From assembly GCA_001004105.1 (NCBI GenBank), contig LCQK01000001.1, positions 166,928-230,927 on the forward strand: DNA of 64,000 nt, read 5' to 3'. The stretch comes from Candidatus Jorgensenbacteria bacterium GW2011_GWB1_50_10. GTDB lineage: Bacteria > Patescibacteriota > Minisyncoccia > UBA6257 > GWB1-50-10. The stretch's first letter is position 1, and each line of letters starts with the position of its first letter. Position numbers and translations under genes: made by a program. Under the pieces are notes generated by a model. The model did no database searches and had not been told where the DNA came from. It was given only the letters and a program-made list of their open reading frames with translations. This document shows positions 11,849-57,651 of the stretch, piece after piece.

Positions 11849-12306
11849 AGCCGGCAAACCGGAGAACGGGCCCCGCAAACCAGAAGGAAAACGGGCCCTT
11901 TTTCTATAATGAAGAGATGGACAAAGAAAAATTACCACCAGAACTCTATCGCGTGGCATATGAGAAAGGCACCGAGGTGCCTTTCACCGGCAAATATGTT
12001 CATGAAAAAGCCGAGGGTATGTACAGGTGCGCCGTCTGCGGCAGCGAACTTTTTTCGTCGGAGGCGAAATTTGATTCCGGCACCGGCTGGCCGAGTTTCA
12101 CCGAGCCGGCCAATTTGAACAATATTGAACTAAAGGAAGATTTAAGCGGAGGCATGCGGCGCACCGAGGTTTTGTGCAGAAAGTGCGGGGCGCACTTGGG
12201 CCATGTTTTTGACGATGGGCCGCGGGACGGGCGCCTGCCTGCCGGCAGGCAGGGCAAGCGTTATTGCATCAACTCCGTTTGTTTGGACCTGGAAAAGAAA
12301 GAGTAG
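11845..12306 (+). CDS. msrB: Peptide-methionine (R)-S-oxide reductase MsrB carrying an in-frame LPAGRQ insertion
   Basis: CxxC...[23 protein letters not shown] MsrB motifs; ATG at 11917 is an alternative start; 6-aa insertion between DG and GKRYCINS encoded by the palindrome. Confidence 0.85.
12234..12253. repeat. 20-nt perfect palindrome CCTGCCTGCCGGCAGGCAGG, in-frame inside msrB (encodes LPAGRQ)
   Basis: Direct read; reverse complement identical; no stop codon in any frame. Confidence 0.9.
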
Positions 12307-12322
12307 TGTGATAAAAACAAAT

Positions 12323-12370
12323 CCCGCCAGTCCATGGACTGGCGGGGCCGCCAGTCCATGGACTGGCGGG
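12323..12370. terminator. Two tandem 24-nt palindromic hairpins (CCGCCAGTCCATGGACTGGCGG twice) between convergent genes
   Basis: Each unit is self-complementary with CCATGG centre; lies between the msrB stop and the minus-strand ORF stop. Confidence 0.45.
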
Positions 12371-12376
12371 ATGAGT

Positions 12377-12562
12377 TTAACGGAAGTTCCGTCTCGGAGG
12401 TCTTTCTTCGCGGTAACAATCACGGCACATCAAGTTGCTCATGCGGGCCGGATCCGGCTCGAAAGGGAGCTCGGTAATCGCTTTGCCGCACTTGGAGCAC
12501 TTCCAGTCACCCTGATACATCTTCCGCGGAGGAAAACCACCGTTATCCTGGTTAAAAGCCAT
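12377..12562 (-). CDS. Hypothetical small zinc-ribbon protein (61 aa)
   Basis: CSKCGK..x22..CRDC; clean ORF convergent with msrB. Confidence 0.4.
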   Translation of the reverse strand: MAFNQDNGGFPPRKMYQGDWKCSKCGKAITELPFEPDPARMSNLMCRDCYREERPPRRNFR

Positions 12563-12697
12563 TTTGCTTTTTAATTTGCGACCTTCGGACTTGAAGCAGA
12601 ATGGCTTTCGCCCTCTTACTTGATAATCCTTAATTTCCGAGTTTAGGGCAGGGAATTTGTTTTGTCAAATGGGCTGTGGTATAGTGTTTTCAACCCA

Positions 12698-13099
12698 ATG
12701 AAATCCTTTTTAGCAGTTTTGACTTTCGCGAGCTTGGTCCTTATCGCCGTTTTCGGGTTTGCGGCGATGAGCCACGGCGCGGGTCACTGCATTGCCTCAG
12801 CGGTGCAGGGCGCCGTCTGTCCCAATAATGACTTGTTCGGATTCGCTTCCTTCCATATCGGTTTTTTTAAGAATTTCGGCAACGCGGCTTTTAAGTCCTT
12901 ATTGGCGGGAATAACTCTTCTTGCCCTCGCTCTACTTACGCTACTCCTGAAGTCGCCCGAATTTTCCGGTCTCGGCTTACGAGAGGCGACTTTCCAGAGA
13001 ACCGGCGGCAGTGAATTTGTCACCTCTTCCATCAAAAACAATCGGCGCTGGCTTTCTCTTTTGGAGACGAGTCCCACTTTGTCTTTGGCGTTAAGATAG
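12698..13099 (+). CDS. Hypothetical membrane/secreted protein
   Basis: ATG at 12698 (MKSFLAVLTF...); the track start at 12662 is a TTG; hydrophobic N-terminus and a second TM. Confidence 0.4.
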   Translation: MKSFLAVLTFASLVLIAVFGFAAMSHGAGHCIASAVQGAVCPNNDLFGFASFHIGFFKNFGNAAFKSLLAGITLLALALLTLLLKSPEFSGLGLREATFQRTGGSEFVTSSIKNNRRWLSLLETSPTLSLALR

Positions 13100-13161
13100 A
13101 ACCGTAATCGGAACGGTCGAATCTTAGCGCGCTCTTATTCCGAATCCCCGGGATTTTTAGT

Positions 13162-13680
13162 TTGACAATCGCAAAAAACATGAACACAAAAATAAAAACA
13201 ACAATAATTATCAGTTTGCTCGTGGTAGCGAGCATTGGTTTGATCCTTGTTACCAAACCGGCGCCTGCGGGCAGTGATAATTTTCAGGCATCATTAAATT
13301 CCGCTCTTCAGACGGACGAACCGTCTTTTGATTTTGGGACCATTTCCATGGCTGGAGGTAACGTGAGCCGCGAATTTTCTTTCGTGAATTCCGGCGGCGA
13401 AACGCTAACCATAAACCAAATCTACACTTCCTGTATGTGTACGACGGCCGTTCTGGATTTGGCCGGCAGGAAGTTTGGGCCGTTCGGCATGCCCGGCCAC
13501 GGTTTTTCCACCCCGATTAAAGCCGAAGTTGCCCCGAGCGGCGCGGGAAAAATTAACGTGGTTTTCGACCCGGCCGCCCACGGACCGGCTGGAGTCGGCC
13601 TCATTGAAAGATTTGTCTATGTTCAAACCGGGGACGGAGCAGTTCTTCGCTTCCGAATAACGGCGTTGGTCACTCCATAA
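13162..13680 (+). CDS. DUF1573 domain protein (membrane-anchored)
   Basis: FDFGTI..G..VSREFSFVNSGGETLTIN..YTSCMCT pattern typical of DUF1573. Confidence 0.6.
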   Translation: MTIAKNMNTKIKTTIIISLLVVASIGLILVTKPAPAGSDNFQASLNSALQTDEPSFDFGTISMAGGNVSREFSFVNSGGETLTINQIYTSCMCTTAVLDLAGRKFGPFGMPGHGFSTPIKAEVAPSGAGKINVVFDPAAHGPAGVGLIERFVYVQTGDGAVLRFRITALVTP

Positions 13681-13700
13681 AATGAAGAGGATTTATTTGA

Positions 13701-14396
13701 TTGTTCTTGCGGCAGTACTGGTTCTTGGGTTTTTCCTTTTCTTCCGGTTTACAGGAGCAGGCCAGGATCTTCTTTGGTCCGTATCCAGTGGCGGGAAACT
13801 CCTTCTACCGCTGCGCCTTTCTCGTCGGTTTGGGTGGGAAAACCGGCCAGATCCTAAAAATCGGCGGCACTTACATCTTAGGGCTTTTCGTGGTCTATGT
13901 CCTGATTGGTCTTGGGATATTGAACGCGCTTCATTTTTTCAACACGCCGCATTTCATGGCGAAGGTCGGAGCGTTTATTCTTATCGGCTGGGGCATCTTG
14001 GAGATTGTCGGTGAATTTTTCCCAAGATTTCCGATTAAGCTCAAAATTCCGGATGCGGCCCATCACAAAATGGCCGAACTCATGGCCAAGGCCTCTTTAC
14101 CGGCGGCTTTTGCACTTGGCGGCTTGGTGGGTTTGTGCGAATTCCCTTGCACCGGCGGGCCGTACCTCATGGTGCTGGGCCTTCTTCACGATGCGGGCAC
14201 CTATCTTCGGGGTTTCGGCTATCTCATCTTCTACAACGTCATTTTCGTCCTGCCGCTTGTGATAATTCTTCTTATTGCAAGCCACGAAGGACTACTCACG
14301 AAGGTGCGGGACTGGCAGAGAAAAGAGAGACGGCTGATGAGATTGGGAACCGGAGCGGCTATGATTGTATTAGGGTTATTAATTTTTGTATTGTAA
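13701..14396 (+). CDS. CcdA/DsbD_2-like thiol-disulfide transporter membrane protein (start uncertain; possible frameshift with overlapping frame 13682)
   Basis: Second conserved motif GLCEFPCTGGPYL (cf. CcdA AGWTPCTGPIL), PYPxxxxxFY near TM1; multi-TM; upstream frame 13682 has an operon-coupled ATG and a TM N-terminus. Confidence 0.6.
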   Translation: MFLRQYWFLGFSFSSGLQEQARIFFGPYPVAGNSFYRCAFLVGLGGKTGQILKIGGTYILGLFVVYVLIGLGILNALHFFNTPHFMAKVGAFILIGWGILEIVGEFFPRFPIKLKIPDAAHHKMAELMAKASLPAAFALGGLVGLCEFPCTGGPYLMVLGLLHDAGTYLRGFGYLIFYNVIFVLPLVIILLIASHEGLLTKVRDWQRKERRLMRLGTGAAMIVLGLLIFVL

Positions 14397-14400
14397 ATTT

Positions 14401-14871
14401 ATGGCTTTAGTCATCACAACAGGTTCAATTCTCGTTATCACTGGCTTGGCTTGGCTATTGAATAAGGTTTTACCCTTCAAGGTTTGCCCCATTTGCGCCG
14501 GCGTCTCCGGTACCTGGTTTTTATTGTTAATCGGAATCCTATCGGGTGTGCTCCTAGTTACTAGTTACCAATTACTGGTTTCTATCCTTATGGGCGGCAC
14601 CGTGGTCGGCATTGCCTACCAAGGCGAGAAAAGCATGGGTGTCGCGCCGGAGAATTTCTTAAAATTCAGAACAGCGACCATTGTTCCTGGTTTTATTCTG
14701 GTTTATTTTGCCGTAAACAACATCAGTTGGCTTACTTTGGTTGTTGAGGCGGTAGCATTGGCGGCGGTTACATATCTCTACTTTGTATTGCCGTTCTCTA
14801 AAAGTATTTCATCTCCGCGGGATAATCAAAAAATTGCTGAACTTGAAGAAAAAATGAAAAATTGTTGCTAA
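14401..14871 (+). CDS. Integral membrane protein with CPIC motif (possible thiol-disulfide oxidoreductase partner)
   Basis: ATG 14401 (MALVITTG...); 4 TM; CxxC in TM1; C-terminal NCC. Confidence 0.45.
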   Translation: MALVITTGSILVITGLAWLLNKVLPFKVCPICAGVSGTWFLLLIGILSGVLLVTSYQLLVSILMGGTVVGIAYQGEKSMGVAPENFLKFRTATIVPGFILVYFAVNNISWLTLVVEAVALAAVTYLYFVLPFSKSISSPRDNQKIAELEEKMKNCC

Positions 14872-14873
14872 CC

Positions 14874-15239
14874 ATGAGGAAATATTCGTTATTTATCATC
14901 ATCTTAATTATTGTTGCCGCGGCTGTGGCGGTTCTGATTATCAATCCTGGTAAGAAGGCGTCGGCTGAGCTCAATAATTTTGCCGCTTGTCTTGCGGGTA
15001 AAAACATTACTATGTACGGCGCCGAATCCTGCTCCTGGTGCCAGAAGGAAAAAGCGAATTTCGGAAGCGCTTTTGAGCAAGTGCCTTACGTGGAGTGCCC
15101 GGACGAACCGCAGAAATGCATCGCGCTCGGCATTGAAGGAACGCCGACCTGGATTTTCCCCGACGGTAGAAAGTTAGTTGGTTATCAAGGTCTCCAAAAA
15201 CTGTCGGAAGCGAGCGGCTGCTCATTGCCGCAGAATTAA
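14874..15239 (+). CDS. Membrane-anchored thioredoxin/glutaredoxin-fold protein (CSWC active site)
   Basis: N-terminal TM then MYGAESCSWCQKEK...GTPTWIF; ATG 14874 (track ORF starts on TTG). Confidence 0.7.
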   Translation: MRKYSLFIIILIIVAAAVAVLIINPGKKASAELNNFAACLAGKNITMYGAESCSWCQKEKANFGSAFEQVPYVECPDEPQKCIALGIEGTPTWIFPDGRKLVGYQGLQKLSEASGCSLPQN

Positions 15240-15240
15240 A

Positions 15241-16089
15241 ATGCAGAAATTAACTTTACCGCTTAGCATCATTTTCTCGGTGCTCATTGTGCTGGGCGCC
15301 GTCGCTTACCGGAGCGGGTTGGAGGCGCCGCTTACGGGGAGTTTCCTCTCGGCTGCCGGAGATGAGAGCAACGTTTTCTGGCCGGAGTGGGGGAATTTGG
15401 GAAAAAAGTTGGTTGATTCCGGCGCCATTGACCCGAATAAGTTTGAATCGGTCTATGCCAGCCGGGGCGGCTTGAGCGAAGGTGAGAAGAAACTGCTCTA
15501 CGGCGACAATAACGGCAAGCTGGTTGTAAACGGAGAAAACGCCGGATTTGTCCTAAACTTACTCTGGGCTTTTGGTCTTGCCAACAAAAATCCGATTCTT
15601 GAAGAAGGCCCGATGATGGACACTCGTTATGGCGGCGCCGGAAATTTTGCCTCAACCGGTGGCTGGACTTTGGCTAAGGGTGATGCAATGGAGTATTACT
15701 CGAAAATTCTTCTTGTTGTTCTTACGCCAAAACAACAGGCGTTAGTAGAGGAAGTTTCAAAGAATATCTATCGACCCTGCTGCAATAATTCCACTTATTT
15801 CCCGGATTGCAATCACGGCATGGCGATGCTCGGATTTTTGGAACTTTTGGCCGCCCAAGGCGCAAGCGAAGAAGAAATGTACCGCGCGGCGTTTCAAGCG
15901 AATTCACTATGGTTCCCCGACACTTACGCGACCATCGCCGAATATCTGAAATCAAAAGGTATTGCTTGGGAGAACGTAAGTCCAAAAGAAATTTTAGGGC
16001 CGGCTTTTTCCAGTTATTCGGGCTTCAGCCGGATTCTCGCCGAATTTACGCCGCCCGAAGGCACGGGAGGTGCAAGCTGCGGAGTTTAG
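15241..16089 (+). CDS. Hypothetical exported Cys-rich protein (CCNNSTYFPDCNHGM motif)
   Basis: ATG 15241 MQKLTLPLSIIFSVLIVLGAVA signal anchor; conserved cysteine cluster. Confidence 0.5.
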   Translation: MQKLTLPLSIIFSVLIVLGAVAYRSGLEAPLTGSFLSAAGDESNVFWPEWGNLGKKLVDSGAIDPNKFESVYASRGGLSEGEKKLLYGDNNGKLVVNGENAGFVLNLLWAFGLANKNPILEEGPMMDTRYGGAGNFASTGGWTLAKGDAMEYYSKILLVVLTPKQQALVEEVSKNIYRPCCNNSTYFPDCNHGMAMLGFLELLAAQGASEEEMYRAAFQANSLWFPDTYATIAEYLKSKGIAWENVSPKEILGPAFSSYSGFSRILAEFTPPEGTGGASCGV

Positions 16090-16147
16090 TATCGACAGGA
16101 TGGTTATAATTAAAGGGAAAGGCCGAAAAACTAATAATTAATTAAGA

Positions 16148-16348
16148 ATGACTCAAAATCTTGGTAAGTTGGACAGAATTTTGCGGTTTCTCTTGGCTTT
16201 TTGGTGGCTTGGTCCATGGGCACCACAGTATGAGGCGGCTGGGGTTAATCTTGTTATCGCCGTTATCGGCTGGATAGCCCTTATTGAAAGTTTTTGGGGC
16301 TGGTGCTGGCTCCATAAACTGTTTGGCATAGATAACAAGAATCAGTAA
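16148..16348 (+). CDS. DUF2892 (YgaP-like) small membrane protein
   Basis: LDRILRFLLAF...GWIALIESFWGWCWLHKLFGI resembles the DUF2892 GWCP.Y.L.GI motif. Confidence 0.55.
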   Translation: MTQNLGKLDRILRFLLAFWWLGPWAPQYEAAGVNLVIAVIGWIALIESFWGWCWLHKLFGIDNKNQ

Positions 16349-16396
16349 CTGAAAATAATCAAAAAGGTCGGTAGTTAATTAACACATACAAAAATT

Positions 16397-16672
16397 ATGG
16401 AATTGAACAAGCAAAAATTTTCCCTCGCGGCCGCCGGGACAATGGGAATTGTTTACGTTGTTTGCGCGGTTTTCGTGGCCTTGTGGCCGGACTTCGCTCT
16501 CCGGCTTTTCGGCTGGCTGGTTCATTTGGTGAACGTCGATAAATTCGTTGGCGACGTTGCCATAACTTTCGGCGGATTTGTAGTCGGACTTCTCCAAGCA
16601 GCCGTCTATACCTACATCGGTGCGTGGATTTTCGCCTCCCTGCACAACAAGTTTATGCAGTCAAGAGCATAG
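16397..16672 (+). CDS. Hypothetical small membrane protein
   Basis: 91 aa, two TM helices. Confidence 0.45.
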   Translation: MELNKQKFSLAAAGTMGIVYVVCAVFVALWPDFALRLFGWLVHLVNVDKFVGDVAITFGGFVVGLLQAAVYTYIGAWIFASLHNKFMQSRA

Positions 16673-16682
16673 AAAGTTTATC

Positions 16683-16889
16683 ATGCGCAAAAAATTGAAA
16701 TCGATTCTCGGTTGGTTCGGATTTCACATTGACCCGGAGCAAAAAACCGCGTTTGACGTTGTCTGCGGAATGGAATTAAAATCGTTTTCTATCAAACAGG
16801 CGAGCCCTTACAAAGGCGAAACTTATTACTTTTGTTCTGAATCATGCAAGGATCATTTTGATGCCGACCCTAAAAAGTACATCGGATAA
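16683..16889 (+). CDS. YHS/TRASH domain metal-binding protein
   Basis: DPEQKTAFDVVCGMEL...YYFCSESCKDHF..P.KY; ATG at 16683. Confidence 0.7.
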   Translation: MRKKLKSILGWFGFHIDPEQKTAFDVVCGMELKSFSIKQASPYKGETYYFCSESCKDHFDADPKKYIG

Positions 16890-17630: not shown

Positions 17631-17634
17631 ACTA

Positions 17635-18120
17635 ATGAATCAGGAGTTAAATAAAAATTCGGCGAAATGGCTTTTTGTCCTGCGGGTCGTAACCGGCTGG
17701 CTCATGTTTTACGCTGGTATCACCAAGATTCTTGACCCGAACTGGAGCGCCGCCGGTTACCTGAAGGGCGCGCAAACGTTTGCCGGATTCTACCAGTGGC
17801 TTGCTAGTGACAGTCTGCTTGGCATCGTTAATTTCGTTAACGAGTGGGGTCTTACGATTTTGGGTGTGTCGCTTATCTTGGGTATCGGCGTGAGATTGAG
17901 CTCCATTTTGGGCGCGATTCTCATGCTTCTCTACTATTTTCCAGTGGCGAACTTCCCTTTTGTGGAGCACGGGTTTATCGTGGACGACCACATTATTGAC
18001 GCCGCCGTTCTCGCGTTTTTGGCCGCCGTTCGGGCGGGTCGTTATTACGGATTGGAGCGCTGGTGTTCCAATTTGCCGATTTGTTCGAAGTTCCCAAAGT
18101 TGCGGAACTGGCTTGGATAA
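17635..18120 (+). CDS. DoxX family membrane protein
   Basis: WLFVLRVVTGWLMFYAGITKI...DoxX-like 4-TM pattern. Confidence 0.65.
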   Translation: MNQELNKNSAKWLFVLRVVTGWLMFYAGITKILDPNWSAAGYLKGAQTFAGFYQWLASDSLLGIVNFVNEWGLTILGVSLILGIGVRLSSILGAILMLLYYFPVANFPFVEHGFIVDDHIIDAAVLAFLAAVRAGRYYGLERWCSNLPICSKFPKLRNWLG

Positions 18121-18136
18121 GTAAACTGAAACCCAT

Positions 18137-18463: not shown

Positions 18464-18490
18464 AATGATAAAAAGTAATAAAATGAACCT

Positions 18491-19470: not shown

Positions 19471-19473
19471 TCA

Positions 19474-25441: not shown

Positions 25442-25442
25442 G

Positions 25443-25526
25443 TGCCCGAGGTGGGAGTCGAACCCACATGTCCTTGCGAACACAGGATTTTGAGTCCTGC
25501 GCGTCTGCCAGTTCCGCCACCCGGGC
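25443..25526 (-). tRNA. tRNA-Leu (anticodon CAA), type II with long variable arm
   Basis: GCCCGGG TG GCGG AACTGGCAGAC GC GCAGGA CTCAAAA TCCTGT var GTTCGCAAGGACATG TGGG TTCGACT CCCA CTCGGGC A. Confidence 0.85.
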
Positions 25527-25545
25527 CTGCCTGCCGGCAGGCAGG
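25526..25545. repeat. 20-nt palindrome CCTGCCTGCCGGCAGGCAGG abutting the 5' end of tRNA-Leu
   Basis: Direct read; first base is shared with the tRNA. Confidence 0.9.
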
Positions 25546-26705: not shown

Positions 26706-27716
26706 ATGACAGGCAAAGGATTGGAATCTCTTATTCCCAAAAAAGATCGGGACGGGGAGATGTTCTCAAAAGACGCGGTCATTTCACCCAGAGCGAATGA
26801 AACGCCGCTCGACTCTCAACCTCGCTCTGTCCCGTTGGGGCGGGACAACCATACCCGCTCGGTTTCCCTGCCTGACCGGCAGGCAGGCGAGACACTTTCT
26901 CAAGCATCTCCCCGTCCCTCAATTAGAGATGAAGCGATATTCCAGATAGAAGTTGAGAAAATAAAACCCAACCCCTACCAGCCGCGGAAAGATTTTAACG
27001 ATGAAGAAATTGAAGATTTGGCCCGTTCCGTCCGCGAGTTCGGCATCATCCAGCCCTTAGTGGTCACCAAAGTTGAAAAAGAAACGGAGACCGGCACGAG
27101 CGTGGAATACGAGCTTATTACTGGAGAGCGCCGGCTTCTTGCGGCCAAAAAAATTGGTTTGCGGAGCGTGCCCGCAATCGTAAAGAGAGTGGATGTCGGG
27201 AAAGCCAAACTGGAAATGGCGCTTGTGGAAAACATCCAGCGGAGCGATTTGAATCCATTGGAAATAGCTAGGGGCTACGCGCGGCTGCAGGACGAGTTTA
27301 ATCTAACCCAGCAGGAGGTCGCCTCCCGGGTCGGCAAGAGTCGGGCTTCCGTTGCAAACACAGTGCGGCTTCTCGCTCTTCCAGGCGAAATGCAGGAAGC
27401 GTTGGGGGCAGGGAAAATAAACGCTTCGCAGGCCATCGCTCTTCTTGCCACCTCCGACATCAATGAACAGCGGCGCTTATTCAGCGAGTTTGTTCACGGT
27501 AAGACTATTAAAGGAGATGCGTCCCACGCCGCGAAAGCTGAAACGCCTGACCCGGAAAAACAATATTGGGAAAAACGCCTAGAAGAACGTTTCGGCGCGC
27601 CGGTCAAGATCATGCGCCGGGATGGCAGGGGAAAAATGGAAATTCGTTTCCATTCCAAAGAAGAATGGCAGGCGATCTTAGATAAGCTTTTGGGCGGCGA
27701 GAATCCCGAAACTTAG
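26706..27716 (+). CDS. parB: ParB/Spo0J partition protein with about 60-aa low-complexity N-terminal insertion
   Basis: GKGLESLIP, ParB box ELITGERRLLAAK, HTH; insertion contains the palindromic element (SLPDRQAGE). Confidence 0.85.
   Translation: MTGKGLESLIPKKDRDGEMFSKDAVISPRANETPLDSQPRSVPLGRDNHTRSVSLPDRQAGETLSQASPRPSIRDEAIFQIEVEKIKPNPYQPRKDFNDEEIEDLARSVREFGIIQPLVVTKVEKETETGTSVEYELITGERRLLAAKKIGLRSVPAIVKRVDVGKAKLEMALVENIQRSDLNPLEIARGYARLQDEFNLTQQEVASRVGKSRASVANTVRLLALPGEMQEALGAGKINASQAIALLATSDINEQRRLFSEFVHGKTIKGDASHAAKAETPDPEKQYWEKRLEERFGAPVKIMRRDGRGKMEIRFHSKEEWQAILDKLLGGENPET
26867..26887. repeat. Variant palindrome CCTGCCTGACCGGCAGGCAGG (one extra A) in-frame in parB
   Basis: Direct read. 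Confidence 0.85.
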
Positions 27717-31907: not shown

Positions 31908-31920
31908 AACACTAAAAACT

Positions 31921-31939
31921 CTGCCTACCGGCAGGCAGG
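31921..31939. repeat. Variant palindrome CTGCCTACCGGCAGGCAGG just after the groEL stop
   Basis: Direct read; one G to A change relative to the consensus. Confidence 0.85.
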
Positions 31940-34373: not shown

Positions 34374-34413
34374 CCCTGCCTGCCGCCTGCCTGCCGGTAG
34401 GCAGGGCAGGCGG
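34374..34413. repeat. Extended/duplicated version of the palindromic element (CCCTGCCTGCCGCCTGCCTGCCGGTAGGCAGGGCAGGCGG) preceded by a 15-nt copy of the tRNA-Ser 5' end
   Basis: GGAGGGGTCGCATAG at 34359 repeats the tRNA 5' GGAGGGGT; the palindrome family core is tandemly reiterated. Confidence 0.8.
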
Positions 34414-34434: not shown

Positions 34435-34519
34435 GGAGGGGTGCAGGAGCGGTTTAACTGGCGGTCCTGGAAAGACCGTATGTCGAAAGGCATCGAGGGT
34501 TCGAATCCCTCCCCCTCCG
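34435..34519 (+). tRNA. tRNA-Ser (anticodon GGA), type II
   Basis: GGAGGGG TG CAG GAGCGGTTTAA CTG G CGGTC CTGGAAA GACCG var TATGTCGAAAGGCATC GAGGG TTCGAAT CCCTC CCCCTCC G. Confidence 0.8.
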
Positions 34520-34522
34520 CTT

Positions 34523-46363: not shown

Positions 46364-47149
46364 ATGAAGTATTCACATCTGAGCGAAACAGTATCGATTA
46401 AAAAAGTTTCCGAAGACGGAAAAAAAGGGGTTTTTCACGTTGAGGGCCTCTATACAGGTTACGGTCAGACGGTCGGCAACGCCTTGCGCCGTGCCCTTCT
46501 TTCGTCGCTTCCCGGCGCGGCCATAACCCAGATTAAAATCAAAGGTGTGGACCATGAATTTTCAACGCTGCCCGGCATGGTGGAAGACGCCGTTGAACTC
46601 ACGCTGAATTTAAAAAAAGTCCGGTTTCATTTCTTCGCCGACGAGCCGCAGACTTTGAAACTCCACGTCAAAGGCGAGCGCGAAGTGAAGGCGGGTGACA
46701 TTGAGTCGACGACGCTCGTCAGAGTGGTAAATCCCGAGCTTCGCATCGCCACTTTAACCAAGAAAAACGCCGATTTGGACATGGAGCTTACGGTTGAAAA
46801 AGGTTTGGGCTACGTGCCTTCGGAGTCGCGCCGCCTAGAACGGCTCTCCGTGGGAACCATCGTGCTTGATGCCATTTTTTCGCCGGTCACGCGGGTTGAA
46901 TTTTCGGTGGAGGATATGCGGGTCGGCGAACGCACCGATTATAACCGCTTGGAACTTGAAATCGAAACTGACGGGTCCTTAAGTCCCTCGGAAGCGCTCC
47001 ATAAAGCGGCCAATGTTCTGAAGGATCATTTTGAAAAAGTTTCAGACATTCCGGTTGTTAAAGTTGAAACGGAGGCCATGCCTACCGGCAGGCAGGCGCC
47101 GAAAGAAGGTAGCAAGAAAAAACCGAGAGCGAAGAAGGCGAAATTATGA
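46364..47149 (+). CDS. rpoA: DNA-directed RNA polymerase alpha subunit, short form (N-terminal domain plus Lys-rich tail, apparently no alpha-CTD), tail carries a palindromic-element insertion
   Basis: 261 aa; alpha NTD motifs; C-terminal ...EAMPTGRQAPKEGSKKKPRAKKAKL. Confidence 0.85.
   Translation: MKYSHLSETVSIKKVSEDGKKGVFHVEGLYTGYGQTVGNALRRALLSSLPGAAITQIKIKGVDHEFSTLPGMVEDAVELTLNLKKVRFHFFADEPQTLKLHVKGEREVKAGDIESTTLVRVVNPELRIATLTKKNADLDMELTVEKGLGYVPSESRRLERLSVGTIVLDAIFSPVTRVEFSVEDMRVGERTDYNRLELEIETDGSLSPSEALHKAANVLKDHFEKVSDIPVVKVETEAMPTGRQAPKEGSKKKPRAKKAKL
47090..47107. repeat. Variant palindrome GCCTACCGGCAGGCAGGC in-frame in the rpoA tail (encodes PTGRQA)
   Basis: Direct read; same reading frame as the msrB and efp copies. 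Confidence 0.85.
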
Positions 47150-49627: not shown

Positions 49628-49651
49628 ATGGGATAGTATACTTTAAAGGAC

Positions 49652-50947: not shown

Positions 50948-50954
50948 CTCAAAA

Positions 50955-52720: not shown

Positions 52721-53268
52721 ACGATTTTATTTCCGATTTTAAAACTAAACTCTCCGCCGTTCTTTCCGATTTCAAAAAGGAATTGGGCGGGATTCGGACG
52801 AATCGCCCGACGCCGGCTATTTTGGAAAACATCCGGGTGGAGTATTACGGCCAAAAATTACCCCTCAATCAGGTTGCCTCGATCGCCATTGAACCGCCGC
52901 GCGACATCGTGGTTTCCGTTTGGGATGCTTCGGCTATCCCCGAAGTCGTGAAGGGCATTGAATCGGCCTCAATGGGCTTATCGGCCGCCCCCCAGGGCAA
53001 CATCGTCCGGGTTCATTTGCCGGAGCTCTCCACCGAACGGCGGGCGGAACTTACCAAACTTGTGGGACGCATTGCTGAAGATTACCGCATCAAGGTGCGG
53101 CACCTCCGGGATGAGGTTAATAAACACGCGGAAAATCTTTTCAAAAGCGGAGAAATCAACGAGGATATGAAGTTCAAATCAAAGGAAAAAATCCAGGAAG
53201 AGACGGAAAAAACCAACAAAGAGATTGAAACGGCCCTTGAGGGAAAAATCAGGGAAATAAAGGAATGA
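52717..53268 (+). CDS. frr: Ribosome recycling factor
   Basis: 183 aa RRF pattern. Confidence 0.9.
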   Translation: MNDFISDFKTKLSAVLSDFKKELGGIRTNRPTPAILENIRVEYYGQKLPLNQVASIAIEPPRDIVVSVWDASAIPEVVKGIESASMGLSAAPQGNIVRVHLPELSTERRAELTKLVGRIAEDYRIKVRHLRDEVNKHAENLFKSGEINEDMKFKSKEKIQEETEKTNKEIETALEGKIREIKE

Positions 53269-54308
53269 TCATCGTTCTTGTCGTCGTCGGCCTGTCGCTT
53301 TTGATTTTAGTCCACGAATTCGGCCACTTTTTGGCCGCCAAACTATCGGGCGTCAAAGTGGAGGAATTCGGTCTGGGTTTTCCGCCGCGCCTCTTCGGTA
53401 AAAAAATAGGCGAGACGATTTACAGCATAAACCTCCTGCCTTTCGGCGGCTTTGTGAGAATTTTCGGTGAGGACGGAAGCGAGGAAACCAAGCGGGACGA
53501 GAAAAGTTTTTCCAATCAGCCCATCTCACACCGTTCGGCGATAATTCTCGCCGGTGTCATCATGAACGTAATCCTTGGCTGGCTTATCTTGAGCTTGGTT
53601 TTCGCAATCGGCGCGCCGGAACATTTGATGATTGCCGAAGTTGCCCCCGGCTCACCGGCCGCCGAAGCCAAATTGAAAAGCGGCGACGTCATTTTGGAAG
53701 CGAGAACCAGAGAGGTTTTAAGCGACCCGGTGAGAAGCAGCGCTTTTGTGGATTTGGTGGAGAACGCCCCAGGAGAAGTTTTTTTGAAGCTAAAGCGGGG
53801 CAAGGATGTTTTTGAGACGACTCTCGCACCCCGGAGGGAACCGCCCGCGGGGCAAGGACCGATTGGCGTGAGTTTGGTGGAAATCGGAATTCCCTCCGAG
53901 CCAATTCTTAAAAGTTTTTACCGGGGGCTCACCGCCACTTTCCGAACCTTAGTTTTGGTTGCCGTAGGCCTTTGGACATTTTTCAGCCGGCTTTTCGTCT
54001 CGCCCGAAGTGCTGGAAACCGTGGCCGGCCCGGTCGGCATTTTCGCCCTCTCGGCTCAGGCCGGTTATTTGGGCCTTGTTTATCTTTTTCAACTTCTCGC
54101 TTTCATTTCTTTGAACTTGGCGGTTTTGAATCTTATTCCTTTTCCGGCTCTGGATGGCGGTCGTTTTCTTCTTCTTATTATTGAAAAAATCAAAGGTAAG
54201 CCGATTTCGCGCCGCTTTCAGGTTGTCGTTAACGCCGCGGGCTTCGTTTTTCTCATTGTTTTAATGCTCATCGTCACTTGGCGCGATGTACTCCGCATCT
54301 TAGAGTGA
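53265..54308 (+). CDS. rseP: RIP metalloprotease RseP (site-2 protease, M50) with PDZ
   Basis: HEFGHF HExxH in TM1, PDZ region, C-terminal LDGG. Confidence 0.8.
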   Translation: MIIVLVVVGLSLLILVHEFGHFLAAKLSGVKVEEFGLGFPPRLFGKKIGETIYSINLLPFGGFVRIFGEDGSEETKRDEKSFSNQPISHRSAIILAGVIMNVILGWLILSLVFAIGAPEHLMIAEVAPGSPAAEAKLKSGDVILEARTREVLSDPVRSSAFVDLVENAPGEVFLKLKRGKDVFETTLAPRREPPAGQGPIGVSLVEIGIPSEPILKSFYRGLTATFRTLVLVAVGLWTFFSRLFVSPEVLETVAGPVGIFALSAQAGYLGLVYLFQLLAFISLNLAVLNLIPFPALDGGRFLLLIIEKIKGKPISRRFQVVVNAAGFVFLIVLMLIVTWRDVLRILE

Positions 54309-54323
54309 TATTATTAATTCAAG

Positions 54324-56168
54324 ATGGCTAATTCCTCGGGAAACAGTAAAGACGTAGTTTACTTCGGCCGGACCGATTTTCGGGGCGAGAACCGGCTCTT
54401 CGGCGTGAAGCGCGCCGATCGGCGCCAGCACATGTATGTTATCGGCAAGACCGGCACCGGCAAGAGCGCGCTCCTGCACAATATGATCGTCCAAGATATT
54501 GCAAACGGCGAAGGCGTTTGCGTCGTTGACCCCCACGGCGAACTCGTTGAGGATATTCTCTCCAAAATTCCCGAGGAGCGGCTAGAGGATGTGATTTATC
54601 TTAATCCGGCCGACACCGAACATTACGTCGGCTTCAACGTGCTGGAGTTGCCGGACCCGAAATACAAACATCTGGTCGCCTCCGGCTTAATGGGAATTTT
54701 CACCAAAATCTGGGCGAATGTCTGGTCGGCGCGGATGGAGTACATCTTGAACAACGCCGTCCTCGCCCTACTGGACACGCCCAATTCCACGCTTTTGGGT
54801 ATTACCCGAATACTCGTTGATAAGGAGTACCGGCAGAAAATTATCGCCAATCTCAAGGACCCGGTGGTGAAGGCCTTTTGGGTTCACGAATACGAAGAAT
54901 GGCAGGATAAATTCCGTAACGAAGCCATCGCTCCCATTCAGAATAAAGTCGGCCAGTTCCTTTCAACCGCCCTCATTAGGAACATTGTGGGGCAGGCCAA
55001 AAGCACGATAGACATTTTTAAAATAATGAACGAGGGAAAAATTTTTATCGTAAATCTTTCTAAAGGCAGAATCGGCGAAGATAATTCTGCTCTCCTTGGA
55101 GCCATGATTATCACCAAAATCCAGCTCTCGGCCATGGAGCGCGTCCGCCTTCCCGAGGAGGAACGGGTGGATTTTTATCTCTATGTCGATGAGTTTCAGA
55201 ATTTCGCGACCGATTCCTTCGCGGGCATTTTGTCGGAGGCCCGCAAATACCGCCTCAATCTGATTTTGGCCCATCAGTACGTGGGCCAGCTCGTGACCGA
55301 AACTTCCACCCGGGTGCGGGATGCCGTTTTCGGCAACGTCGGGACAATGATTATTTTCCGGGTGGGGGCGGCTGATGCTGAATATCTGGAGCCGGAATTT
55401 ACGCCGGAATTCACGATTCAGGATATCGTCAATCTCCCGAACTACCACGTTTATTTGAAACTGATGGTAAACGGCGTGACAAGCCGCCCTTTTTCTTCCC
55501 GGACCCTGCCGCCGTTTAAGGTCCAAGCCTCGCCACTTATCAAGGAAAAAGTGATTGCTTCTTCCGTGAAGCGTTATGGCCGGCCGAGAGTGGTGGTGGA
55601 AGAAGAAATCAACCGCTGGAGCGGGATTATGGCCGGGGAAGGAGGCGCTCCCCCAAGCGGCAAGTATGAAGCGACTTGTTCCATTTGCGGCAAACCGGCG
55701 ATTGTGCCTTTCAAACCCGAGCCGGGCCGGCCGGTTTACTGCAGCGACTGTTTTGCCAAAATTGAGGCCGGCGAACTAAAGCCGCTCCCCGCCAAACTTT
55801 TTACCGGCAAACCTGAAAAGAGATATACAAGCGATTTATCGGCCTTAGGCATTGAATTTGAAGGGTCGCCAAAAAAAGAAACGATGGTGGGTGGGCTCGC
55901 CCGCAACGCTTCGCGTAGCGATGCGGGCGGGGGATTTCTAGAGAGAAGGAACCGGCCCGAAAGAAGAAGATATGAGCGCCCGAGGCAGGGTCCGCCACGG
56001 CCGCAATCCATTATCCGGGAAAGTTCGGTGCCGGAGGAGACCGAGAAGCCACTGGGGCTTAGTGAACTCACGCCTCAAGAGGAAAAAATCAAACCCGAAC
56101 GGAGTAAACCCGAGCCGGACGTGGCCGGTCTCCAAGAAGCGCTCCGAAAGGCGCTGGAGAATAAGTAG
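54324..56168 (+). CDS. VirD4/TraD-type (T4SS coupling protein-like) AAA ATPase with C-terminal zinc ribbon and RG-rich tail
   Basis: Walker A GKTGTGKS, VVDPHGE, Walker B YLYVDEFQNF; C-terminal CSICGK...VYCSDCF; no other T4SS genes in the window. Confidence 0.5.
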   Translation: MANSSGNSKDVVYFGRTDFRGENRLFGVKRADRRQHMYVIGKTGTGKSALLHNMIVQDIANGEGVCVVDPHGELVEDILSKIPEERLEDVIYLNPADTEHYVGFNVLELPDPKYKHLVASGLMGIFTKIWANVWSARMEYILNNAVLALLDTPNSTLLGITRILVDKEYRQKIIANLKDPVVKAFWVHEYEEWQDKFRNEAIAPIQNKVGQFLSTALIRNIVGQAKSTIDIFKIMNEGKIFIVNLSKGRIGEDNSALLGAMIITKIQLSAMERVRLPEEERVDFYLYVDEFQNFATDSFAGILSEARKYRLNLILAHQYVGQLVTETSTRVRDAVFGNVGTMIIFRVGAADAEYLEPEFTPEFTIQDIVNLPNYHVYLKLMVNGVTSRPFSSRTLPPFKVQASPLIKEKVIASSVKRYGRPRVVVEEEINRWSGIMAGEGGAPPSGKYEATCSICGKPAIVPFKPEPGRPVYCSDCFAKIEAGELKPLPAKLFTGKPEKRYTSDLSALGIEFEGSPKKETMVGGLARNASRSDAGGGFLERRNRPERRRYERPRQGPPRPQSIIRESSVPEETEKPLGLSELTPQEEKIKPERSKPEPDVAGLQEALRKALENK

Positions 56169-56175
56169 GGAATTA

Positions 56176-56367
56176 AAACTTCTTTTCTTACGCCAGACAG
56201 CTTCAGCTCGGGCGATTTCCCCCGCCTGTCCATGGGCAGGCGGGGTCAACCCCTCGCTCGCTTTAGATCCGGTGGTATGACGCGTCATACCACCGGATAG
56301 CTCGCTCACCCTAAAGGGCTTCGCCGAAGAATTGAGGGGTAAGTCTGGCGCAAAGAAAAGTAGTTTT
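56176..56367 (+). ncRNA. Structured repeat element copy B (about 192 nt), homolog of copy A with compensatory changes
   Basis: Closing stem AAACTTCTTTTCTTACGCCAGACAGCTTCAGC / GCCGAAGAAT..GTCTGGCGCAAAGAAAAGTAGTTT; hairpins CCCCGCCTG..CAGGCGGGG and TCCGGTGGTATGACG/CGTCATACCACCGGA; same conserved cores as A. Confidence 0.5.
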
Positions 56368-56381
56368 GATAAGAGAAGAAT

Positions 56382-56410
56382 TTGACAAAATCAGATTTAT
56401 CTGATATAAT
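56382..56410 (+). promoter_or_regulatory. Consensus sigma70 promoter TTGACA-17-TATAAT driving the 56507 orphan gene through a hairpin-containing 5'UTR
   Basis: -35 56382..56387, -10 56405..56410; 5'UTR hairpin GGTATAAGA/TCTTATACC; SD CAGGAGG. Confidence 0.55.
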
Positions 56411-56506
56411 TAAAGATAGCACAATGGTATAAGATCACTCTGGTCTTATACCCCTACCAGATGCCCGGACGGGCTCAAAGGGTCGGATGACCCAGGAGGC
56501 ACAGCA

Positions 56507-57016
56507 ATGTCGTTACTGAAAACGATGTCCCCGAGGGAGCAAGAGAGGATTCAACACGAACGGCTCGTGAACCGGGATTTCCCCTGGTTGTGGGCCGTGA
56601 GAAGCGAGTGGGATTTTCCAGCGCAGGAGATGACAGTTCAGTACGCTGGTAAATACAATCCACTTCTCAAGGCGTTTCTTGCCTACAATGACTCCATACT
56701 CAAAGAGATTTGGGTTCGAGTTGAGGTCAAACATCCTCGGGGCAAGGACTACACCGGTTACTCTTTCTCCGCGGTGAGGAAAGTAGACGAACCCCGGGAT
56801 CGCTCTTGGGCGGAGGCGATTTTGTGCAGAGTTCCTTACGGGGGCGTAACTCACCTCGCGATTCTGAGTTACCGTCATCATCAAGACGGCACGGAGGATA
56901 GGAGTAGGCGTCAGGTAACGGTCTATCGGCCGATGAAGCCGGAGATGACCCTCGACGCCTTCCTTCTCGAGGCTGTCGAAGAGGCGGAAAAGAACAAGCC
57001 GCGGGCGTGGAAATAA
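56507..57016 (+). CDS. Hypothetical GC-rich orphan protein (169 aa)
   Basis: Strong promoter, SD and terminator; shares VTVYRPMK with the 10538 protein and NPLLKAFL with the minus-strand ORFs at 4645-5199. Confidence 0.55.
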   Translation: MSLLKTMSPREQERIQHERLVNRDFPWLWAVRSEWDFPAQEMTVQYAGKYNPLLKAFLAYNDSILKEIWVRVEVKHPRGKDYTGYSFSAVRKVDEPRDRSWAEAILCRVPYGGVTHLAILSYRHHQDGTEDRSRRQVTVYRPMKPEMTLDAFLLEAVEEAEKNKPRAWK

Positions 57017-57034
57017 CCCGCAGTTGCAGAGTTT

Positions 57035-57066
57035 GGAGGCGACACGAAAGTGCCGCCTCTTTCTTT
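57035..57066 (+). terminator. Rho-independent terminator
   Basis: GGAGGCG acacgaaagt GCCGCCTC then TTTCTTTTT. Confidence 0.55.
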
Positions 57067-57651
57067 TTATCCTTTCTCCACCCGTTCTACGTAATCGCCG
57101 CTTGCCGTGTTTATGCGGATGATGTCGCCTTCATTGATGAAGAGGGGAACATTTACTTTGGCGCCGGTTTCCAAAGTCACGGTTTTAGTGCCGCCCTGGG
57201 CGGTGTTGCCTTTGACGCCCGGCGGCGCTTCCGTCACTTTCAAGTCCATCTTGACGGGCGGTTCGATATTGATGATTTTTTCGTTGAATTTGAAAGCCCG
57301 TGCCTCGCTGCCCTGTTTCAAATAATTTGCCGCTTCGCCCACGATGTCGGCCTTGAGGGCAAATCTTGATTTGGGATTGCCAGAGACGTGGAACCAGTAC
57401 TCCTGCCTGCCGGCAGGCAGGCGCCGCGCATAAATAAACTCAACCGGAATTATCTCAATATCTGCCTCTTTGAACGAGTCGTTCTGGTGGGCGGCGTATT
57501 CCCGGACCTTGCCGGAAATTAAATTCTTGATTTTGAGCTGGGCCACGGGCTTGCGCTGCTGCATCCGGACGAAGGCGTAGTCCAGTACCTCATACGGCTC
57601 GCCGTCTTTAATGAACAACATCCCGACTTTTAGTTCGTTGTAGGAAAGCAT
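57067..57651 (-). CDS. efp: Elongation factor P carrying an in-frame LPAGRQ insertion
   Basis: 194 aa EF-P; FIYARR-LPAGRQ-EYWFHV where canonical EF-P has a short loop. Confidence 0.9.
   Translation of the reverse strand: MLSYNELKVGMLFIKDGEPYEVLDYAFVRMQQRKPVAQLKIKNLISGKVREYAAHQNDSFKEADIEIIPVEFIYARRLPAGRQEYWFHVSGNPKSRFALKADIVGEAANYLKQGSEARAFKFNEKIINIEPPVKMDLKVTEAPPGVKGNTAQGGTKTVTLETGAKVNVPLFINEGDIIRINTASGDYVERVEKG
57402..57421. repeat. 20-nt palindrome CCTGCCTGCCGGCAGGCAGG in-frame inside efp
   Basis: Direct read, perfect copy. Confidence 0.9.

Follow-up and report, generated by a model that had tools for sequence, protein, structure and literature searches.

The window, by which we mean the whole 64-kb stretch of DNA that was analyzed, contains genes for MsrB, ParB, GroEL, RpoA, and EF-P, two tRNA genes, and dispersed copies of a 20-nt perfect palindrome, CCTGCCTGCCGGCAGGCAGG, that we call E. 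The window is from the Parcubacteria genome of a groundwater bacterium. The copies of E and the annotated genes next to or around them are as follows:

11845..12306, plus strand: msrB, SelR domain (Pfam PF01641, E-value 2.7e-46), host of copy 1
12234..12253: E copy 1, exact, in msrB, preceded by CG; product (R)LPAGRQ
25442..25526, minus strand: tRNA-Leu(caa), intact (ARAGORN; visual check of acceptor-stem pairing)
25526..25545: E copy 2, exact, directly 5' of the minus-strand tRNA-Leu(caa)
26867..26887: E copy 3, 21-nt variant with an extra central A, in the N-terminal extension of parB; product LPDRQAG
31920..31939: E copy 4, 2 mismatches, intergenic, 13 nt past the groEL stop codon
34375..34413: E copies 5 and 6, a nested pair that ends 22 nt upstream of tRNA-Ser(gga)
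34435..34520, plus strand: tRNA-Ser(gga) (ARAGORN)
47077..47096: E copy 7, 2 mismatches, in the Lys-rich C-terminal tail of rpoA, followed by CG; product MPTGRQ(A)
57067..57651, minus strand: efp (Pfam EFP_N and Elong-fact-P_C; orthologue alignment), host of copy 8
57402..57421, minus strand: E copy 8, exact, in efp; product (R)RLPAGRQ, located in the turn that joins FIY to EYWF

The window thus contains eight copies of E (three exact and five variants, with two of the eight nested), or approximately 1 per 8 kb. The first-pass annotation of this DNA had reported a palindromic repeat in seven copies with one-base variants only. The repeat is real, as 0.01 matches are expected by chance and none of 100 shuffles of the window sequence gave six. 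The count is eight because the "extended" copy placed at 34374 is two nested copies of E; several copies differ at more than one base from the consensus, and two start positions, 31921 and 47090, were corrected to 31920 and 47077. Other parts of that annotation were borne out: Pfam confirmed the identities of the host genes msrB, parB, rpoA, and efp, ARAGORN confirmed both neighboring tRNA genes, and direct reading of the sequence confirmed that E is free of stop codons in all six frames. The sequence had also been thought to be undescribed, and neither the 20-mer nor the peptide LPAGRQ was found in the literature that we searched.

All four copies within ORFs begin at codon position 3, so that the single codon phase noted at first pass is retained, and these copies encode LPAGRQ, LPDRQAG, or MPTGRQ. 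In EF-P, E adds five to seven amino acids to a turn that is four residues long in most of the 120 closest relatives. In MsrB, alignment with solved structures showed that E adds seven amino acids between DDGPR and GKRYC. Judged from these alignments, E was inserted in frame into EF-P and MsrB in a lineage-specific manner. The earlier claim of an extra segment relative to orthologues therefore holds for these two proteins, whereas the copies in ParB and RpoA are in tails beyond the Pfam domains. In ParB, E occupies residues 54-60 and the ParB_N domain starts at residue 78; in RpoA, the domains recognized by Pfam (N-terminal and insert only) end near residue 227, and a relative (L244) has an RpoA tail that lacks E. 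The unit gained at non-coding sites is 20 nt, a length not divisible by 3, whereas the copies in msrB, efp, and rpoA share a 21-nt form comprised of CG and 19 nt of E; the last G is common to E and the host gene. This in-frame form is not a simple insertion of E, and a clean 20-nt mechanism leaves it unexplained.

The efp copy is common to six independent assemblies of this population. When efp was compared between lineages, third-codon-position identity was 0.47-0.51, yet E matched at 19-20 of 20 positions. This near-identity of E despite saturated synonymous sites in efp suggests that the copies are young or renewed. In a neighbor-joining tree, efp sequences occupied by E were scattered over five separate clades.

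Copies outside of protein-coding genes show how E is arranged at its insertion sites. The last G of copy 2 is also base G1 of tRNA-Leu(caa), as would be expected if exactly 20 nt had been inserted between G1 and C2. In the nested pair, the inner E (34386-34405, one mismatch) entered an outer, decayed E after position 11, leaving outer halves at 34375-34385 and 34406-34413. Nested copies at three other loci (L018, L042, and L021) have the same internal insertion point. At non-coding sites with a known empty state, E adds 20 nt with no target duplication; comparison of pseudo-tRNA with intact tRNA gave this size at L037, L106, L118, L152, L083, L165, and L248, with one extra or substituted base at L253 and L030. 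There are no conserved flanks around the 20-21-nt insert, and a search for a longer element bounded by E halves found none. The lack of target-site duplication at known empty sites and of a larger E-bounded element led us to reject the idea that E is a MITE derived from an insertion sequence.

Stems of at least 7 bp flank 5.5% of E copies vs 0.9% of control positions, and approximately 90% of copies are outside of obvious hairpin loops. All four nested copies examined are at C|CGG or CCG|G of the predicted tetraloop of E, and E also occurs in D-, anticodon-, variable-, and T-loops of tRNA sequences. These positions show that E favors the single-stranded loops of hairpins and enters its own loop as well. 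Decay, nesting, and repeated arrival at the same efp nucleotide support the conclusion that E behaves as selfish DNA.

E is widespread. The exact 20-mer is present at at least 120 genome loci in approximately ten phyla, cultured Bacteroidota among them, and in 35 stretches of viral contigs; one viral locus (L143) has seven copies in 10.4 kb. By arithmetic, approximately 0.5 exact matches are expected in 596 Gb. Decayed copies were found alongside exact ones. A perfect palindrome that is identical across unrelated datasets, mostly metagenome-assembled genomes, is what would be expected of an adaptor, a linker, or a palindrome made by an assembler. This explanation is effectively refuted, since cultured isolates and one complete long-read chromosome carry E, host flanks are continuous with reading frames intact, copies are decayed and nested, the same copy occurs in six assemblies from different pipelines, and the context of tRNA and GIY-YIG genes described below is consistent. 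Thus, E is neither a chance sequence nor an artefact.

Of the protein families encoded within 600 nt of E, a GIY-YIG nuclease recurs most often, and no other enzyme family was recurrent among the 1,585 ORFs within this distance. These nucleases are 77-88 aa long with a single GIY-YIG domain (PF01541, the only domain found), and their nearest PDB entries are the UPF0213 proteins 1zg2 and 1ywl. The cassette that contains the gene has the order duplicated 5' tRNA fragment (usually from tRNA-Leu), nuclease gene, intact tRNA gene. The leader of this cassette is where E is usually found; it lies within the duplicated fragment, 11-64 nt ahead of the nuclease start codon. E or decayed E was found just upstream of the nuclease gene in 13 of 14 tRNA-linked cassettes; these 13 include L165, which was fetched for ParA rather than selected for E, and L077, where the cassette is 2.6 kb away from the E that retrieved the locus. 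The 13 also include all seven of the cassettes chosen by protein sequence alone (from Bacteroidota and CPR). In 863 kb of ParA-anchored loci, the sole exact E that had not been selected for is in such a cassette. Two loci (L165 and L251) are syntenic with the window and have a GIY-YIG/E cassette at the same tRNA-Leu/ParA position, and two (L251 and L253) have E on both sides of the nuclease gene. Given this physical linkage, the small GIY-YIG nuclease probably recognizes or moves E.

It could instead be that E is mobilized by another agent, such as an IS200/IS605- or RAYT-type ssDNA transposase, recombination, or template switching, and that the cassette leader is a neutral, highly transcribed, hairpin-rich hot spot that accumulates and inherits E. 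There is no GIY-YIG gene within the 64-kb window, and the nuclease family was found once in viral contigs vs the 35 viral stretches with E, including E-dense ones, so that E can be maintained, and may even spread, where the gene is absent in cis. Pseudo-tRNA fragments that carry E without a nuclease gene (L030, L083, and a 3' fragment in L253) also favor another agent. In many cassettes E is at an identical D-loop position, which several cassettes sharing it by inheritance would predict, so the association may partly reflect inheritance of the cassette rather than repeated insertion. Moreover, GIY-YIG enzymes hydrolyze DNA and do not join it. Insertion thus needs another activity, and the ligation is beyond these enzymes. 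Nonetheless, we consider another agent unlikely. No alternative enzyme family recurs near E, and no larger element ends in E halves. The E-linked nucleases are only 42-49% identical to one another while the E beside them is identical and perfect, an argument for gene-linked constraint or renewal. Fresh and decayed copies adjoin in one leader of approximately 35 nt at L165, L251, L247, and L257, and at L060, which lacks a neighboring tRNA, E is upstream of a GIY-YIG gene of another subtype.

We also considered whether E is a functional cis-element, such as a protein-binding site, a stabilizing or terminating hairpin, or a tag for self-recognition or uptake, that is selected site by site, with the copies in ORFs as tolerated side effects. 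Perfect conservation of E in cassette leaders of several phyla and its regular spacing ahead of the nuclease start codon would be consistent with this. The groEL-proximal copy has a terminator-like score, on the minus strand only, and a T-run is missing after most copies. A terminator would be harmful in essential or conserved ORFs, which contain four of the eight window copies. The NTS repeat modulates natural transformation in Neisseria (PMC11893778), and ComEC is encoded beside efp in this genome; uptake sequences, however, are lineage-specific, whereas E is identical across phyla. Copies of E decay without compensatory changes (for instance at positions 2, 8, and 13 in the window), nesting destroys the outer hairpin, and E is gained as a discrete insertion, not through point mutations. 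A cis-element selected at each site is therefore quite improbable.

The closest known system to E and its nuclease is that of the Ssn nucleases with their NTS/SRM hairpin repeats (Chenal et al., Nat Commun 2025; PMC11893778). The pairing of a hairpin repeat with a single-domain GIY-YIG ssDNA nuclease was thus already known from that 2025 report (PMC11893778). Experiments have shown that Ssn enzymes bind a hairpin repeat on ssDNA and cleave adjacent to it, and the authors suggest an IS-like or REP/RAYT-like source for expansion of the repeat (PMC11893778). In both systems a small single-domain GIY-YIG protein (approximately 80-100 aa for Ssn and 77-88 aa for the E-linked proteins) is encoded by a gene flanked by a hairpin repeat, and both occur in several phyla. 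The Ssn repeat is also dispersed through the genome in many copies; E has eight copies in the 64-kb window, which has no nuclease gene. As a proxy for the Ssn clade (CDD cd10448; SsnA CAX49033.1) we compared the nuclease profile with an Azospirillum GIY-YIG protein, the gene for which is flanked by four SRM repeats; hhalign gave a match at 98.4% probability with an E-value of 1e-14 and 39% identity.

There are also clear differences. E is a perfect, unoriented 20-nt palindrome that shares no sequence with NTS, whereas NTS is oriented and SsnA cleavage requires this orientation (PMC11893778). A script that recovered the four SRMs flanking the Azospirillum gene gave no match to the published SRM pattern HGTCWYN(0-2)YYVSBRHN(0-5)WNVSBRGN(0-2)RNCYNB in either the window or five cassettes. 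From phylum to phylum E is identical and does not co-vary with the nuclease, and the E-linked nuclease gene is in a tRNA 5'-duplication cassette; the main text of PMC11893778 mentions neither tRNA genes nor the E motif. E enters ORFs in frame, whereas 2% of NTS copies in N. meningitidis are intragenic (PMC11893778).

On balance, we favor as the likely explanation that E is a mobile palindrome, the cognate hairpin of an Ssn-like clade of GIY-YIG nucleases, that has proliferated in this genome. Single-stranded E would form a hairpin with an 8-bp stem and a CCGG loop at which the nuclease would bind and cut ssDNA, so that E would stand to its nuclease as NTS/SRM repeats do to Ssn enzymes and REPs to RAYT transposases. 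We infer that the nuclease recognizes E and that spread is catalyzed by the nuclease together with host repair or ligation. New copies would arise at exposed single-stranded sites, chiefly the loops of other hairpins such as tRNA D-, anticodon-, and T-loops, terminator loops, and the loop of E itself, with the outcome being a 20-nt insertion that lacks a target duplication. The tRNA-targeted cassette may carry the nuclease-hairpin pair from one phylum to another, which would account for a 20-mer that is the same everywhere, and in the Parcubacteria genome of the window E would have spread beyond the cassette. In coding DNA, only in-frame copies would survive, that is, the 21-nt "CG+E" form or E with a compensating base, and these would be retained in loops or tails of four proteins (MsrB, EF-P, ParB, and RpoA), read in the LPAGRQ phase, which is free of cysteine.

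More tentatively, and with less confidence than doubt, E might be the smallest autonomous-partnered mobile element known so far, a 20-nt ssDNA hairpin that is excised and re-inserted into single-stranded loops by the Ssn-like nuclease with ligation or repair by the host. The pair would then spread from phylum to phylum on a cassette that homes into tRNA genes, for which the duplicated 5' tRNA segment would serve as a portable arm of homology, and E would strike essential genes (efp, for example) repeatedly at one codon. If correct, the Ssn family would gain a role in driving the expansion of hairpin repeats, and proteins would have a new route for acquiring loop segments.

The behavior of E had been likened at first pass to that of Rickettsia palindromic elements (RPEs). 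RPEs are roughly 100-150 bp long, belong to several sequence families, and are known only from Rickettsia. The likeness stands for selfish character and in-frame colonization of conserved genes (msrB, efp, parB, and rpoA for E) with addition of a surface peptide. Identity with RPEs does not stand; E is an insert of 20-21 nt with one sequence in approximately ten phyla and phages and has a candidate partner gene, making RPEs an analogy only.

REP/RAYT systems resemble E in having a dispersed short palindrome, a single-copy enzyme gene flanked by the cognate palindrome, and an ssDNA hairpin as substrate. REPs are extragenic, imperfect, and species-specific with a conserved GTAG. RAYT is an HUH/Y1 transposase that cuts and rejoins, whereas the partner of E is a hydrolytic GIY-YIG nuclease. 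We rejected membership in this group because the recurrent neighbor is GIY-YIG rather than Y1, half of the window copies are intragenic, and E lacks GTAG. The Neisseria dRS3 repeat (ATTCCC-N8-GGGAAT) is likewise a 20-bp palindrome with hundreds of copies, approximately half of which are part of the NTS recognized by SsnA (PMC11893778). In contrast to E, dRS3 is conserved only in its arms, intergenic, and confined to Neisseria, and its sequence has no similarity to E. The mobile GC clusters of yeast mitochondria, like "byp"-type inserts, are short GC-rich palindromes within protein and RNA genes. The yeast clusters differ from E in being organellar, eukaryotic, 30-50 bp long, and of several classes, some with target duplications, and we know of no link between them and a GIY-YIG/tRNA cassette. 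Free-standing GIY-YIG homing endonucleases such as those like T4 Seg have a separate DNA-binding domain and spread into a cognate site through double-strand-break repair, whereas the E-linked nuclease has no extra domain. The order of pseudo 5' tRNA, ORF, and intact tRNA, together with a foreign pseudo-tRNA in L251, fits tRNA-gene homing.

We searched the window for the perfect 20-nt palindrome CCTGCCTGCCGGCAGGCAGG (called E), a candidate mobile element, allowing up to three mismatches and using shuffled sequence as a control. The search returned six sites, with 0.01 matches expected in shuffles, and two more copies were found by reading the sequence, for a total of eight.

Copies of E and an adjoining tRNA gene in the window
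12234: exact E, inside msrB
25442-25526, minus strand: tRNA-Leu(caa), whose first base is the last G of E
25526: exact E, adjoining tRNA-Leu(caa)
26867-26887: 21-nt E with an extra A at the center, inside parB; found by reading the sequence
31920: E with two mismatches
34375-34385 and 34406-34413: outer, decayed E, split by the copy at 34386; found by reading the sequence
34386: E with one mismatch, inner member of the nested pair
47077: E with two mismatches, inside rpoA
57402: exact E, inside efp

The first-pass annotation had counted seven copies, the parB copy among them; the split outer copy at 34375-34413 brings the number to eight. The repeated palindrome is confirmed, more strongly than first stated. 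Some of the positions then given were off by 1-13 nt, and several copies described as one-base variants differ from the consensus at more than one base. The four host genes are borne out by Pfam as msrB (SelR), parB, rpoA and efp. The common codon phase also stands, with E starting at codon position 3 in all four ORF copies and encoding LPAGRQ, LPDRQAG or MPTGRQ. Both tRNA neighbors also stand, since E shares a base with tRNA-Leu(caa) and the nested pair is followed after 22 nt by the start of tRNA-Ser(gga). A 'CG' flank is frequent among the window copies. The central hexamer of E, GCCGGC, occurs 80 times in the window versus 29.5 expected from dinucleotide shuffles. We rejected this excess as a HIP1-like signal because the hexamer is no outlier under a maximal-order Markov model; the excess is oligomer or codon composition, not E debris.

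Alignment of the window EF-P with its 120 closest relatives showed that most are 188-191 aa long with the pattern FIY-xxxG-EYWF, the commonest form being 189 aa with FIYHN-RG-EYWF. Eight sequences in the alignment carry an insert. This reads A-RRLPAGRQ in the window EF-P and two comparison proteins (P0001, P0002) and G-RLPAGRQ-E, a gain of seven aa, in the other five. At the DNA level, the empty efp site of comparison locus L245 is GGA followed by GAA TAC TGG, and the occupied site of L243 and L244 is GGN CGC CTG CCT GCC GGC AGG CAG GAA. The net gain is 21 nt, made up of 'CG' plus E, with the last G of E common to the host. Against solved MsrB structures, the window MsrB is longer by seven residues, which are placed between DDGPR and GKRYC, directly preceding the catalytic RYCxNS motif; the msrB DNA also has the 'CG+E' form. 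Thus, both alignments agree with the earlier proposal that E is an insertion relative to orthologues. E lies N-terminal to the ParB_N domain in ParB and in the Lys-rich tail past the dimerization domain in RpoA; the RpoA tail of a relative lacks it. The window RpoA (46364-47149) is only 261 aa long, with N-terminal and insert domains and a short Lys-rich tail but no detected alpha C-terminal domain, and L244 has the same layout.

A 20-nt insert shifts the reading frame, so an in-frame E needs an extra base. The window ORFs gain it through the 21-nt CG+E form in msrB, efp and rpoA and through an additional central A in parB. The LPAGRQ phase is used in 8 of 11 long E-bearing ORFs of other genomes; the two other reading phases of E encode cysteine. 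Homologous proteins in L043:2000 (WWE3) and L047:3381 (Daviesbacteria) have E at a seemingly equal position (…G-LPAGRQ-G-x-IF…) and may represent a second recurrently occupied coding site.

In a neighbor-joining tree the occupied EF-P sequences fell into five separate clades. Third-codon-position identity among these efp genes is 0.47-0.51, whereas E agrees at 19-20 of its 20 positions in every one, so the efp copies of E are far younger than the lineages that carry them or have been renewed. The repeated occupation of this one site is observed directly; either a single efp nucleotide was struck repeatedly or the occupied allele moved between lineages. The comparison of occupied and empty sites between strains, suggested in the first-pass annotation, revealed no polymorphism in six independent assemblies of the window's Parcubacteria (CPR) population from Rifle groundwater (99.8-100% identical), all of which are occupied with an identical efp copy.

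The exact 20-mer is present in at least 120 stretches of a one-genome-per-species collection, and arithmetic gives a chance expectation of about 0.5 in 596 Gb. Among the matches listed, 120 loci tallied by record title comprise CPR/Patescibacteria (36), Bacteroidota (38), Ignavibacteria (1), Omnitrophota (10), Planctomycetota/PVC (8), 'Gammaproteobacteria'/Pseudomonadota (12), Delta-type/Bdellovibrionota (6), Nitrospirota (3), Chloroflexi (1), Elusimicrobia (1) and unclassified sequences (4). Seven of the listed loci are from cultured isolates, for example Winogradskyella echinorum, Longitalea luteola and Aquiflexum lacus. E is also present in 35 stretches of viral contigs, some of them dense (seven copies in 10.4 kb of L143, five in 12 kb of L141), and its presence across phyla and in phages is thus a direct observation. 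Neither the 20-mer nor the peptide LPAGRQ had a match in the literature searched.

We clustered the ORFs that are no more than 600 nt from E, taking all loci together, and found one recurrent family, a small GIY-YIG protein of 77-88 aa with only a PF01541 domain and a C-terminal REKYLKSGxG. At an E-value below 1e-5 the family numbers at least 7,868 proteins, named in their sources only as 'GIY-YIG nuclease family protein' or 'putative endonuclease'; a literature search on GIY-YIG with tRNA or CPR found nothing relevant. The gene is part of a cassette in which a duplicated 5' tRNA part (position 1 to ~24-52) is followed by a short spacer, the ORF and an intact tRNA, whose start ranges from a few bases ahead of the ORF stop codon to 16 nt past it. 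E is inside the duplicated fragment, 11-64 nt 5' of the nuclease ATG. We also chose seven family proteins by sequence alone; they came from Ekhidna lutea, Chitinophagaceae, Colwellbacteria and metagenomes. Each of their genes was upstream of tRNA-Leu, and each cassette had E (exact in four) or E-derived variants in the pseudo-tRNA D-loop. Overall, 13 of 14 tRNA-linked cassettes contain E or a decayed E, the exception being a decayed remnant (L074). The tight physical link of E to the nuclease cassette is observed directly.

Loci anchored on ParA rather than on E were used for synteny. Most of these metagenome loci were too distant (≤64% identity) and only L165 was informative; it has a decayed and a perfect E in a pseudo-tRNA-Leu and is syntenic with the tRNA-Leu/ParA pair of the window. 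The ParA-anchored DNA, 863 kb from diverse bacteria, contains a single exact E that had not been selected for, namely this cassette copy. At L077 the cassette is 2.6 kb away from the E by which the locus was selected. At L251 an E-bearing pseudo-tRNA flanks the ORF on both sides; its sequence is unlike that of the resident tRNA-Leu, so it came in with the cassette. Pairwise identity of the E-linked nucleases is only 42-49%, whereas E itself is identical, so E is constrained or constantly renewed in the cassette. At L060:3745-3880 (Thermodesulfobacteriota), where no tRNA is close by, E and a decayed 21-nt E precede a GIY-YIG gene of a different subtype by ~45 nt; because E is stop-free, this gene is fused in frame to an upstream ORF. 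The 64-kb window contains no GIY-YIG gene, and the family had one locus in viral contigs and two matches in plasmids. Rfam found only tRNAs and one group I intron near cassettes. The intron (RF00028, 86 bits; L152:1182-1416) is ~365 nt downstream of a GIY-YIG/E cassette at a locus where ARAGORN called no intact tRNA. A GIY-YIG ORF of the same general type is inside the 23S rRNA of a Saccharibacteria locus (L093:4758-5042), with no E nearby.

Comparison of the duplicated tRNA fragment with the adjoining intact tRNA gives the size of the insert. This is exactly 20 nt without target duplication at L037, L106, L118, L152, L083, L165 and L248, with one extra or substituted base at L253 and L030. 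What is observed is thus a discrete 20-nt insert, lengthened to 21 nt in ORFs and at two sites in non-coding DNA, that duplicates no target. We rejected target-site duplication because the few loci with 5-7 bp direct repeats are all in host tandem repeats and known-empty sites have no duplication. E is found within short (7-10 nt) intergenic host tandem repeats that mimic such duplications at L101, L050, L058, L082, L115 and others. A larger transposon bounded by E halves was also rejected, as solo half-sites are rare and never paired. The flanks are unconserved except for the adjacent base, which is A before or T after E in 41% versus 9% for the opposite base.

As single-stranded DNA, E is predicted to fold into an 8-bp stem with a CCGG loop (-8 kcal/mol). 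All four nested copies (window 34386, L018, L042, L021) are inserted between C and CGG or between CCG and G, inside this predicted loop. Other copies are inside or border the D-, anticodon-, variable- and T-loops of tRNAs, and some are in terminator-like hairpins. Flanking stems of at least 7 bp occur at 5.5% of copies versus 0.9% of control positions and are absent at most copies. The loop bias, adjacent A/T bias and self-loop nesting are direct observations, but a hairpin loop is not an obligatory target, since loops are enriched 3-6 fold and hold only ~9% of copies. E copies decay without compensatory changes. A second palindrome variant, CCTGACTRCCGTCAGG, and 'TGAC' variants of E recur in independent loci (L251:1432-1451, L255:1165-1184, L077, L242, window 26867); rather than products of random decay, they may be sub-families whose stems have changed. 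An otherwise intact tRNA-Met in a viral contig (L145:2239-2330, IMGVR_UViG_3300033148_008720) has E at the variable region/T-stem junction; ARAGORN calls this tRNA by treating E as an intron, and the E hairpin would mimic a long variable arm. At L253:1840-1930, the 3' portion of a tRNA (variable arm, T-arm, acceptor strand) is duplicated downstream of the intact tRNA-Leu, and E is in the T-loop of this duplicate (GGTTCGAA followed by TCC). Thus, 3' pseudo-tRNA fragments exist too and also take E.

Chenal et al. (Nat Commun 2025, PMC11893778) described the Ssn family of single-domain GIY-YIG enzymes (SsnA is 94 aa, CDD family cd10448), which bind a hairpin repeat (NTS/SRM) in ssDNA only and cut alongside it. 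In that study, at least one SRM is close to 71% of Ssn genes and 42% are flanked by SRMs on both sides, 81% of SRM-rich genomes encode an Ssn homologue, and the authors raised an IS-like or REP/RAYT-like origin of repeat expansion. The main text mentions no tRNA, Bacteroidota, Patescibacteria or CCTGCC/GGCAGG motif. E does not match the published SRM pattern and the window contains no SRM; applied to an Azospirillum lipoferum plasmid, the same script detected four canonical SRMs (CGTCATCCCCGCGAAGGCGGGGATCCAG) flanking a GIY-YIG gene. This 97-aa gene (L254; strain 4B plasmid NC_016623.1, 255506-255799) is between sufB and sufC, with an inverted pair of canonical SRM/NTS-like repeats on each side. 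The E-linked profile aligned to the Azospirillum protein with an hhalign probability of 98.4% (E-value 1e-14, 39% identity). The nearest solved structures to the E-linked protein are UPF0213 proteins, with a weak match to SLX1. Because the SRM pattern failed and the profile aligns to an SRM-flanked protein, the best reading of the sequences is that the E system is a probable sister variant beside Ssn/SRM. It is unusual in its 20-nt size, cross-phylum identity, tRNA-duplication cassette and recurrent in-frame colonization of essential genes. The likeness to Rickettsia palindromic elements (RPEs) proposed in the first-pass annotation holds only as an analogy: E too colonizes ORFs in frame, but it fails the defining features of RPEs. 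E is neither a REP/RAYT element nor a MITE.

By analogy with Ssn biochemistry, we infer that the nuclease recognizes E as an ssDNA hairpin. Cutting at the base of this hairpin would free or expose E, after which ligation or repair by the host could set it into other single-stranded loops. The cassette might spread by homing to tRNA genes, bringing along its own left homology arm in the duplicated 5' tRNA segment, and selection would retain only in-frame, cysteine-free copies in protein loops and tails. The extra 'C/CG' of the 21-nt form may be carried over from the tRNA-Leu donor context TAGA-E-CGCG. As GIY-YIG enzymes hydrolyze DNA and do not join it, insertion would need another activity, and E can persist in phage contigs that lack the gene. 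If E is the nuclease substrate, it would offer a natural case for reading Ssn-type-driven repeat expansion directly, through empty versus occupied sites, a 20-nt insert at most sites, no target duplication and a loop preference. This would explain the identical 20-mer in CPR bacteria, Bacteroidota, Omnitrophota, PVC bacteria and phages, and essential proteins such as EF-P and MsrB would repeatedly acquire the same seven residues via a DNA parasite. Several cultured Bacteroidota encode the nuclease and carry E, which puts the hypothesis within reach of experiment, and a fixed 20-nt recognition hairpin could be of use in ssDNA tools like those proposed for Ssn. In the window, efp has as neighbors a VirD4/TraG-like coupling-protein gene and a ComEC competence gene (54324-56168 and 59495-60931), which may be relevant if ssDNA uptake is a route of E or nuclease action.
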